DNA from: Naegleria gruberi
Lineage: Eukaryota
DNA length: 1,116 bases
Direction: 5' to 3' (one strand)
NCBI GenBank assembly: GCA_000004985.1
Contig: GG739550.1
The notes under the pieces were generated by a model. That model was not told the DNA's origin. It saw only the letters and a program-made list of their open reading frames with translations, and did no database searches. Of the stretch, positions 1 through 1,115 are shown piece by piece. Made by a program: the position numbers and the translations under genes. Position 1 is the stretch's first letter. Every line of letters begins with the position of its first letter.

Positions 1-20
1 GATCCCTATTCTTATTACTA

Positions 21-108
21 CACTACGAGCCAAGCGGTTTAACCAGCAGCCTCCACTTGTATTCTAATTACAGCTCGACGATATTTTGTGAGTGGTTGGC
101 TCGTAGTG
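21..108. repeat. 13-bp perfect inverted repeat (21-33 cactacgagccaa / 96-108 ttggctcgtagtg), 62-nt spacer; 15/15 with one mismatch
   Basis: Direct base-by-base comparison of the reverse complement. Composition here is fairly balanced, so a 13-mer inverted match within about 90 bp is unlikely by chance. It lies just 3' of the PPR relic stop at 138. Confidence 0.5.
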
Positions 109-124
109 ATAGTTTAGTGGTTGG
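73..124. repeat. Imperfect tandem duplication of a ~26-nt unit (73-98 gctcgacgatattttgtgagtggttg / 99-124 gctcgtagtgatagtttagtggttgg). The 9-mer agtggttgg is exact at 91-99 and 116-124
   Basis: Manual alignment gives about 75% identity with small indels. The second unit carries the right arm of the inverted repeat above. A third motif-like copy, gctcgacgat, sits at 632-641 inside the pseudogene and is an exact 10-mer match to 73-82. Confidence 0.4.
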
Positions 125-137
125 AATTGAAACGTGC

Positions 138-749
138 CTAGAAATAATCAACCACAAGAACAAGTGCCATTTCTAAAGTGGTGAACTCTACTTGCATCGG
201 TTAGAATAATTTCTCTTTTTCTTAGCTTTGAGCTCTCTGATCACAACTTGTATCCTGTTTGAAGCCAGCTTGCTCCATCTCTTTGGATAGTTTGTCTAAT
301 TCCTCATAAATTTCTTTTTTCATTTCATGATTTTTCTCTTCACAAACAAAGGAGTGGACTTTTCCATTTACAGTAATAAAACTTCTTCCAGGCTCTTTGG
401 TAACTCCTCTTTTCTCCATTAGTAAACGTATGTGGTTTCTCTTTTCCATTAATCCTTTCGAAGAATAAATTGGATAATAGTAATGTCTACAATATTCAAA
501 GGATTGCAATGTGGTGGTGTTAAAACAACAATTTAAGGAGAATCCAAATAATGCGCTTTTGTGGTTTTAAAGAGTAAAAAGACTACAGCACCACAGGTTC
601 CCAAGTTGTCTCCAACCTCAGTACTGATGTGGCTCGACGATGCTTAACTTCTCAAATCGGACGGGATGAGGTGCATTCATCGTGATATGGCCGTAGCCAT
701 TCAATACCTTAATCTGCCTCCTTTCAACAATCTCGGGAAAAGATAAAAT
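138..749 (-). pseudogene. PLS-class PPR protein (E1-like / E2 / E+ / decayed DYW deaminase tail) gene fragment, probably a pseudogene
   Basis: Seen in sequence, minus strand. (1) 222-509 translates to …LLMEKRGVTKEPGRSFITVNGKVHSFVCEEKNHEMKKEIYEELDKLSKEMEQAGFKQDTS. From memory this closely matches the E2/E+ consensus of plant PLS-PPR editing factors (~ VRKLMKERGVKKEPGCSWIEVNNKVHEFVAGDKSHPQSKEIYAKLEELSKRMKEAGYVPDT). (2) After the TAA at 222-224, the frame shifted by +2 (240-151) reads SESSKLRKREIILTDASRVHHFRNGTCSCG. This matches the DYW-domain C-terminus (…ISKIxGREIIVRDxNRFHHFKDGxCSCGDYW). It is followed by TGA at 148-150. (3) One extra T (GGT-T-GAT, around 150) displaces the terminal GAT TAT TTC TAG (D-Y-F-stop, 149-138) back into the original frame. 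(4) About 45-50 residues expected between …PDT and the CxxCH region, including the HSE and CGDCH zinc motifs, are absent. The junction is around 243-251. (5) In the ORF frame, 621-737 reads PEIVERRQIKVLNGYGHITMNAPHPVRFEKLSIVEPHQY. This is a weaker E1-like match (…ALLGACRIHGNxELGExAAEKLLELEPxNxGxY). It is cut by TGA at 618-620 and TAA at 567-569. (6) There is no P/L/S repeat array upstream: sequence beyond 750 is AT-rich with stops in all frames. Support is strong for 138-509 and weaker for 510-749. Confidence 0.65.
222..509 (-). CDS. Longest intact frame inside the PPR relic; encodes the E2 + E+ motifs only (95 codons as listed in the ORF track). Probably not an independent functional gene
   Basis: This is the ORF-track entry. 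Its listed first residue 'M' is actually a TTG codon (plus 507-509 = caa). So there is no ATG at the listed start. The first in-frame ATG is at 449-447, which would give MEKRNHIRLLMEKRGV…, 75 aa. The frame is closed upstream by TAA at 567-569. It ends at TAA 222-224, immediately before the shifted DYW remnant. The motif match to PPR E2/E+ is strong. Whether it functions as a stand-alone product is unsupported. Confidence 0.45.
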   Translation of the reverse strand: MQSFEYCRHYYYPIYSSKGLMEKRNHIRLLMEKRGVTKEPGRSFITVNGKVHSFVCEEKNHEMKKEIYEELDKLSKEMEQAGFKQDTSCDQRAQS

Positions 750-875: not shown

Positions 876-1115
876 TCAATTATTATTTCCAAATTCCGTA
901 AAAAGATATGAGTCTAGACTTTTCAGTGCATTTACAATATGTGTGATTGTAAGAGAAACTACCAATTTCGTTCTTCCTAAAGTTAAAATCGTTGTATTAC
1001 GATATGAATCTAACTGTAAATCAGGCGGCAACAATATTGGCAATATTAAGCAACATACAAAGAATCCAAATAAATCGGTTTGAACTCTTGATAAAGTTAC
1101 GGTATTGAAGAAACA
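876..1115 (-). CDS. Edge-truncated open reading frame (79 codons + TGA), unknown product; possible 3' exon or 3' end of a gene continuing beyond the window
   Basis: Manual translation of the minus strand from 1115 gives CFFNTVTLSRVQTDLFGFFVCCLILPILLPPDLQLDSYRNTTILTLGRTKLVVSLTITHIVNALKSLDSYLFTEFGNNN, ending at TGA (plus 876-878 = tca). Seventy-nine stop-free codons is unusual for AT-rich plant non-coding DNA; I estimate chance around 0.3% per frame and start point. No start codon or splice site can be assigned, and I do not recognise the family. The L/I/F/T-rich composition is also what AT-rich non-coding sequence would produce, so the call rests mainly on frame length. Confidence 0.3.
   Translation of the reverse strand, partial: CFFNTVTLSRVQTDLFGFFVCCLILPILLPPDLQLDSYRNTTILTLGRTKLVVSLTITHIVNALKSLDSYLFTEFGNNN

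Follow-up and report, generated by a model that had tools for sequence, protein, structure and literature searches.

A full-length 5S rRNA gene and the remnant of a DYW-type PPR gene in probable nuclear DNA of the Naegleria/Willaertia group

DYW-type PPR proteins are encoded in the nucleus in Naegleria, Acrasis and plants, and in plants they edit organelle RNA from C to U at specific sites. Outside plants, genes of this type were first found in Naegleria gruberi, which has 11 of them (Knoop and Rudinger 2010, cited in PMC4202320). Acrasis kona encodes 12, and the family shows lineage-specific expansion (PMC4202320). Confirmed mitochondrial C-to-U sites number only two each in N. gruberi and Acrasis (PMC4202320; bioRxiv 10.64898/2026.09.04.749523). 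The genome of N. gruberi also contains 279 putative 5S rRNA genes that are found on many scaffolds at widely separated coordinates (PMC3369914 Table S1), are not linked to the rDNA unit and end in T-run terminators (PMC3369914).

The DNA analysed here, a stretch of 1,116 nt that we call the window, is eukaryotic nuclear DNA with one element of each kind, the remnant of a PPR-DYW gene and a full-length 5S rRNA gene, both on the minus strand (Table 1). The two elements are unrelated to each other, belong to known kinds and are ordinary for a Naegleria-like lineage. We conclude that the window very probably derives from the nuclear genome of a member of the Naegleria/Willaertia group (Naegleriidae or near) and that it carries an apparently functional solitary 5S copy beside a dead DYW-type PPR gene of which the 3' end is left. 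The NCBI taxonomy currently places both Willaertia and Naegleria in the heterolobosean family Naegleriidae. The heterolobosean origin follows from two independent lines of evidence, namely the gene that neighbours another copy of the 5S gene and the homologues of the PPR relic; heterolobosean sequences are the closest both to the elements of the window and to the genes that neighbour the nearest copies of these elements.

Table 1. Position of the features in the window, with position 1 as its first nucleotide.
Feature	Position	Strand	Basis
Fragment of a PPR-DYW pseudogene with E2, E+ and a truncated DYW domain (only the 3' end)	138..498	-	tblastn, DNA alignment to L004, blastn
Second half of the E motif (E2)	375..470	-	Pfam PF20431, positions 31-62 of 63, 18.9 bits, below the cut-off of 27.3
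E+ motif, after the PG box KEPGRSFITVNGKVHSF	276..359	-	Pfam PF20430, positions 1-28 of 28, 25.6 bits, cut-off 24
C-terminal end of the DYW deaminase, in another frame than E2/E+ (SKLRKREIILTDASRVHHFRNGTCSCG at 231..151)	151..234	-	Pfam PF14432, positions 62-90 of 93, 38.6 bits, cut-off 24
Junction of an out-of-frame deletion, centre of the deaminase lost	236..247	-	blastn against L004
In-frame TAA closing the E2/E+ frame just past the deletion junction	222..224	-	ORF calls
Extra T at 150 giving a premature TGA (150..148); without it GAT TAT TTC TAG = D-Y-F-stop (149..138)	138..150	-	Sequence
5S ribosomal RNA gene, full length	580..698	-	Rfam RF00001, 105.4 bits (gathering score 38), E 7.8e-24, model positions 1-120, no truncation
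Five consecutive T that close the 5S gene, a terminator of RNA polymerase III type	576..580	-	Sequence
TTGTTGAAA, -32 to -24 upstream of the 5S gene, candidate upstream promoter element	722..730	-	Alignment of two loci

The G+C content of the window is about 35%, with 23-31% in 750-1050 and 43-45% over 526-750. Neither tRNA genes nor tandem repeats were found in the window, the Rfam scan of the window returned no family besides 5S rRNA, and the other ORFs of the window had no matches in Pfam. A prokaryotic, plasmid or phage locus has a negligible probability. Nothing was found in its favour; the phage and plasmid collections (searched with blastn) and the viral-contig and prokaryotic genome collections contained no match to the window, and the counts of sigma-70 promoters and terminators in the window equal those of shuffled sequence. 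Moreover, the closest relatives of both elements are eukaryotic, since the 5S gene recurs beside a Naegleria-like gene and the relic resembles eukaryotic PPR proteins. The preliminary description of the window had correctly taken the locus for eukaryotic. It had also recognised that the TTG “start” of the longest ORF (95 codons, minus strand, 509..222) arises only because ORFs were called by bacterial rules.

The signal of E2/E+ motifs and a DYW tail, on which the same description was built, is real and far above chance. The matches to E+ and DYW_deaminase within 138-509 are significant in Pfam, and the partial match to the E motif stays below its cut-off (Table 1). For E2 and E+, the translation of the 95-codon ORF was extended upstream to the preceding stop and used as Pfam input; no PPR repeat was matched in this extended frame. 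Using PPR-DYW proteins as queries (P0030, P0034 and others), tblastn gave two HSPs in different frames, at 470..210 (frame -2, E 9e-27) and at 231..142 (frame -1, E 2e-10), and seven full-length PPR-DYW proteins showed no homology to the window outside 470..142. At the DNA level, the alignment to the tail of the PPR-DYW gene on contig L004, which encodes P0030, reaches to position ~498. The remnant of the DYW_deaminase domain corresponds to the last 29 model positions, with model positions 1-61 missing, and the site upstream of the relic where a PPR tract would be expected is taken by the 5S gene. Searched exhaustively with phmmer, 1.8 billion representatives yielded 670 matches at E ≤ 0.001, and all matches inspected by name or sequence were PPR/DYW proteins. 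This exhaustive HMMER search was required, as a word-index protein search with the repaired relic gave no match. Within the interval 138-749 of the earlier description, only ~498..138 is PPR-derived. The part 510-749 is not PPR sequence; it holds the 5S gene and its upstream region, and this full-length gene, identified with Rfam, had been overlooked within the very interval that was highlighted.

The lesions of the relic were determined by comparison with the closest intact gene, which encodes P0030, a protein of 765 amino acids. Homology to P0030 begins only at position ~498, so that the last ~120 codons survive, and about 21 nt are missing inside E2 near 471-475. According to blastn, window 248-419 corresponds to L004 12035-11864 and window 139-235 to L004 12297-12202. 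The intervening junction comprises 166 nt in L004 and 12 nt in the window, a net loss of 154 nt that shifts the frame. The residues of P0030 that are missing from the relic, DMNEDEKKELLCKHSEK...RVCGDCHEATKMI, include the HxE and CxxC zinc/catalytic residues (HSEK...CGDCH), and their loss is consistent with the absence of positions 1-61 of the Pfam DYW_deaminase model. The 3' end of the relic reads GGT-T-GAT TAT TTC TAG, and removal of the single T restores G-D-Y-F-stop, which matches the terminus CSCGDYF of P0030. The end of the domain reported as a DYW tail is therefore present, but it is a DYF end and is put out of frame by the extra T. No short GT...AG intron was found that could mend these defects. 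A processed, LINE-mediated pseudogene was considered and rejected, there being no poly(A) tract past the stop of the relic. Likewise, a conserved 3' flank was sought by comparing window 1-141 with the gene flanks on L004 and L008, and the similarity did not exceed that of shuffled sequences.

Judged by these lesions relative to P0030 and L004, the PPR-DYW fragment is a pseudogene and is unable to edit RNA, because it has no PPR tract for RNA binding, no HxE...CxxC centre, an in-frame stop, an additional T before DYF and no ATG-initiated full frame. In this respect the earlier reading of the coding signal as a relic instead of a live gene agrees with our analysis. The E2/E+ frame is free of stops over 82-95 codons, for which the chance probability at the composition of the window is ~0.0005 (95 codons) or ~0.0015 (82 codons). 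Given the loss of both the RNA-binding tract and the catalytic centre, we read this as probable recent decay and not as retained function; otherwise some constraint would persist on the frame. That the fragment still has a use, for instance by encoding a short E2/E+ protein that starts at an internal ATG (75 codons, MEKRNH...) or by giving rise to a regulatory transcript, appears highly improbable to us. The unexpectedly stop-free frame (P ~0.001) would fit such a use, as would the truncated E+ proteins of plants, which act in trans with DYW partners (bioRxiv 10.64898/2026.09.04.749523). However, the complete absence of the PPR tract leaves no RNA binding, E2 itself is damaged by the 21-nt gap and falls under the Pfam cut-off, three more lesions follow downstream, and no homologous short protein was found. 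Furthermore, young pseudogenes keep open frames for a while.

Compared with the DYW-type PPR proteins of Heterolobosea (N. gruberi, A. kona and Willaertia magna KAL9655006), the relic shares the C-terminal module of E (matched in part), PG box, E+ and DYW domain, and it shares with them FxCEE..H, a remnant of ...VTR, K/RKREI and, as in P0030, the terminal DYF. It differs from them in having neither PPR repeats nor the zinc/catalytic centre, and in its frameshifts and stops. The best match of the relic is P0030 (57% identity, 82.7 bits). The contig encoding this protein (14.8 kb) also carries CFAP91 and RPB2, and its RPB2 reaches 83% to N. gruberi, 73% to Willaertia and at most 66% to any other full-length match. 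The second match in a single stretch is W. magna KAL9655006 with 72.0 bits, and N. gruberi XP_002679496 is among the matches too. On 113 retained columns, identity to the relic is 57% for P0030, 51% for Willaertia, 49% for N. gruberi and 39-49% for the named plants. In a neighbour-joining tree of these columns, the relic and P0030 are paired with 81.5% bootstrap support, and this pair lies inside a Willaertia/N. gruberi group that is weakly supported (~20%). Similarity at the DNA level was detected by blastn to the Willaertia gene on L008 (74% over 78 nt) as well as to the gene on L004. Single motifs agree with this affinity: the FxCEE motif reads FVCEEKNH in the relic vs FYCEENKH and FICEDKHH, RKREI is found as in N. 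gruberi, and a remnant (CDQR) of the ...WVTR motif is kept where plants show ...VLHD. We count the affinity to Heterolobosea among the firm results, together with the motif content, the lesions and the 5S gene.

With the PLS-class PPR-DYW factors of land plants the relic has the same Pfam families in common (E_motif, Eplus_motif and DYW_deaminase), but it is less similar to these factors than to the heterolobosean proteins, it is non-functional, and its company, a solitary 5S gene of Naegleria type, is not plant-like. The origin from land plants, specifically Brassicaceae, that the preliminary description proposed is not supported; the gene linked to the 5S copy and the homologues of the relic point to the Naegleria/Willaertia group. 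We regard land-plant nuclear DNA, for instance a PLS-class PPR pseudogene of a bryophyte or an angiosperm, as a most improbable source, notwithstanding that the E/E+/DYW architecture is commonest in land plants and that proteins of Sphagnum, Calypogeia and angiosperms are among the significant matches of the relic. Plant proteins occupy ranks 2-4 of the phmmer search with scores that are built from 2-11 repeated stretches. Per single stretch, the plant-named clusters reach no more than 59.7 bits, the value of the best plant-containing cluster (Sphagnum), compared with 82.7 for the Naegleria-like P0030 and 72.0 for Willaertia. The pairing of the relic with P0030 in the tree speaks against plants as well, as does the 5S gene, which is nearly identical to a copy beside a clearly Naegleria/Willaertia-type gene and stands alone, unlike the tandem 5S arrays of plants. 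The earlier description had called the architecture nearly restricted to land plants, with rare transfers to protists; the window is that protist exception, which had been named and set aside.

A DYW-bearing eukaryote outside Heterolobosea, such as a member of the Amoebozoa (Balamuthia, Physarum, Acanthamoeba), a malawimonad or a rotifer, is a very unlikely source. The distribution of the DYW family is patchy (PMC4202320; bioRxiv 10.64898/2026.09.04.749523), and a PPR protein of Balamuthia mandrillaris is a significant match of the relic with 59.6 bits. Against this, the two top single-stretch matches and the gene neighbours of both the 5S copy and P0030 are all Naegleriidae-like.

The 5S gene of the window provides the second line of evidence for a heterolobosean origin. 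Its structure is complete, and it is conserved as a whole. In the cmscan alignment, several helix positions deviate from the consensus and pairing is nevertheless kept, including in helix IV (GGUUGGAGACAAC). A 29-mer of the gene led to a single metagenome contig (L001, Ga0247722_10036048). A second contig, L005 (2878 nt, ENA sample), represents the same locus, independently assembled from a different sample. The 5S genes of the window and of L001/L005 are identical at 118 of 119 positions, and the similarity starts and ends with the gene, with the exception of the T-run and of TTGTTGAAA. L001 has a T-run at the equivalent site, where the similarity between the two 5S loci stops. As the flanks are unrelated, the window and L001 are different loci that share this gene, whether within a single organism or between close relatives. 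The link between the 5S gene and a taxon passes through a metagenome contig.

The neighbour of the 5S gene on L001 is an intronless gene for an ABHD11-like hydrolase of 361 amino acids. Its top named matches are proteins of W. magna (52%, E 1e-104) and Naegleria lovaniensis (58%), followed by mammalian ABHD11 with 29%. Orthologous ABHD11 loci without a 5S gene are found in Naegleria sp. (L009/L010), N. lovaniensis (L003) and Willaertia (L002), and the gene order on L009 is that of N. lovaniensis. In an Rfam scan of ten loci (L002-L004, L007-L011 and two copies of the L001 locus), 5S was detected only at L001/L005. Since the 5S gene is missing from the orthologous ABHD11 loci, we conclude that 5S positions turn over between relatives.

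In comparison with the dispersed 5S genes of N. gruberi, the 5S gene of the window is likewise a stand-alone gene of ~119 nt, located off the large rDNA unit and terminated by a T-run, with copies at unrelated loci. Due to the large number and dispersal of 5S genes in N. gruberi, it is unremarkable to meet a solitary one within any given kilobase of such a genome. We take the gene of the window for an apparently functional solitary copy that is presumably expressed. 5S-derived SINEs (e.g. SINE3) also place 5S sequence at scattered sites; in contrast to these, the similarity between the window and L001 covers exactly the 119-nt gene and the T-run, with no shared tail. Because nothing past the gene is common to the copies, the 5S sequence of the window is a gene copy and not a SINE. 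A second, degenerate 5S copy in 1-137, suggested by the shared 10-mer GCTCGACGAT at seemingly equal spacing to CTCCA, was rejected at a score of 20 vs a shuffle mean of 15 and maximum of 24. Similarly, a direct repeat (539-559 / 1061-1081, 18 of 21 positions identical) was discarded as a target-site duplication flanking a mobile 5S unit, since its gapped score of 33 is not significant against a shuffle mean of 25.7 (sd 4.4, maximum 50).

The copy number of the 5S gene also bears on the integrity of the window. An assembly chimera, in which the flanks ≤579 and ≥699 come from different 5S loci that were joined through the 119-nt repeat, would mean that the relic and the AT-rich region 699-1116 are not neighbours. 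Multi-copy 5S genes with unrelated flanks, 279 putative ones in N. gruberi, and the shortness of the contig would allow such a join. We consider it unlikely, because the sequence has no sign of a join and the composition is similar on either side, and a chimera would leave the identities of the relic and of the 5S gene unchanged. The possibility that PPR sequence resumes upstream of the 5S gene, with the 5S gene lying in an intron or inserted into an intact gene, was rejected, as tblastn was empty in 699-1116.

We propose that the 5S gene at 698..580 is one among many scattered copies in such genomes and that RNA polymerase III would transcribe it, directed by internal and upstream elements and stopping at the T-run of the gene. 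The dead 3' end of the DYW-type PPR gene lies ~80 nt downstream of it and is probably silent and subject to drift. A rearrangement may have removed the 5' part of the PPR gene, and the same event could have brought the 5S gene to its place ~80 nt upstream of the remainder. In our reading the relic is a decaying by-product of the lineage-specific expansion of its gene family; a decayed copy is to be expected because the DYW family undergoes such expansion.

More speculatively, 5S copies might be mobile in the Naegleria-like lineage, and one arrival, or the rearrangement that brought it, might have cut the PPR tract and killed the DYW-type PPR gene. Movement of 5S genes is supported by their presence beside the ABHD11-like gene in L001/L005 and their absence at the orthologous loci of Naegleria sp., N. 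lovaniensis and Willaertia, yet for the scenario in its entirety we see only a small chance. If it were true, the window would capture 5S dispersal in the role of a mutagen while a family of editing factors, expanded and possibly acquired by horizontal transfer, was turning over.

The chief value of the analysis is a correction, in that a motif architecture treated as diagnostic for land plants marks a protist here, and the decisive clue was the 5S rRNA gene inside the flagged interval. The relic indicates that Naegleria-like DYW-type PPR families leave pseudogenes behind, and the comparison of the ABHD11 loci demonstrates that the positions of 5S genes differ between close relatives. The block TTGTTGAAA is the sole part of the flanks that is common to the window and the L001 5S loci (n = 2 loci compared). 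It is not a canonical TATA box, and its conservation at -32 tentatively suggests a candidate upstream promoter element.

The 5S rRNA gene of the window can be compared with that of a metagenome locus present in two independent assemblies (L001 and L005), where the 5S gene lies beside a gene for an ABHD11-like hydrolase. In the alignment of the two 5S loci, the block TTGTTGAAA is located at exactly −32 to −24 relative to both genes, and outside of this block the 5S flanks of the window and L001 are unrelated. Judged from the sequences of these two loci (n = 2), TTGTTGAAA is a candidate for an upstream Pol III promoter element of this lineage. A direct repeat around the 5S gene was considered as a target-site duplication and rejected, its gapped alignment score being inside the shuffle range.

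Coordinates of repeats and of the shared upstream block
Feature	Position	Strand	Description
Inverted repeat	window 21-108 (arms 21-33 and 96-108)		perfect, 13 bp, 62-nt loop
Direct repeat	window 539-559 and 1061-1081		18/21, core AGAATCCAAATAA; one copy on either side of the 5S gene together with its upstream sequence
TTGTTGAAA	window 722-730; L001 681-689	(−) in both	from the alignment of the two 5S loci

Only the organism of L001/L005 carries an intergenic 5S gene upstream of the ABHD11-like gene, whereas none was found at the orthologous loci of Naegleria sp. (L009, L010), N. lovaniensis (L003) and Willaertia (L002). Thus, 5S gene positions are not conserved between these relatives. The upstream neighbour of the ABHD11-like gene in L001/L005 is also not the same as in the orthologous loci.

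An orthologue of the L001 hydrolase with 68% identity is encoded on contig L011, which comes from JGI sample 3300002220 (MLSBCLC). Contig L004, which encodes the closest intact homologue of the PPR-DYW pseudogene fragment of the window (the relic), originates from the same sample. Because L004 and L011 share this sample, we conclude that much of the genome of a Naegleria-like organism is contained in it, the RPB2 of this genome being 83% identical to that of N. gruberi. This genome is open to further mining. Two plant proteins among the matches to the relic, P0031 (Asparagus) and P0033 (Carica papaya), are ranked over homologues that are truly closer, since duplicated E/E+ blocks in their gene models (2 and 11 matched stretches, respectively) raise the whole-protein scores. 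Both gene models look like products of tandem duplication or of annotation artefacts.

Just 3′ of the stop of the relic, the window contains an inverted repeat, the arms of which can be extended if one bulge is allowed. By our own rough estimate, chance alone would give about 0.01 repeats of this kind in 1.1 kb. The folding z-scores of the region are −3.5 for the plus strand and −2.7 for the minus strand. Rfam gave no match for this region, and the arm sequence was not found in the other loci retrieved for comparison. The repeat could represent a small RNA, the end of a MITE or the 3′-end signal of the former gene. The sequence record may represent a restriction fragment that was cloned, and not a metagenome contig, which would agree with the absence of the window from all collections scanned: at its very start (positions 1-5), the window reads GATCC, the remainder of a cut BamHI (or Sau3AI) site.
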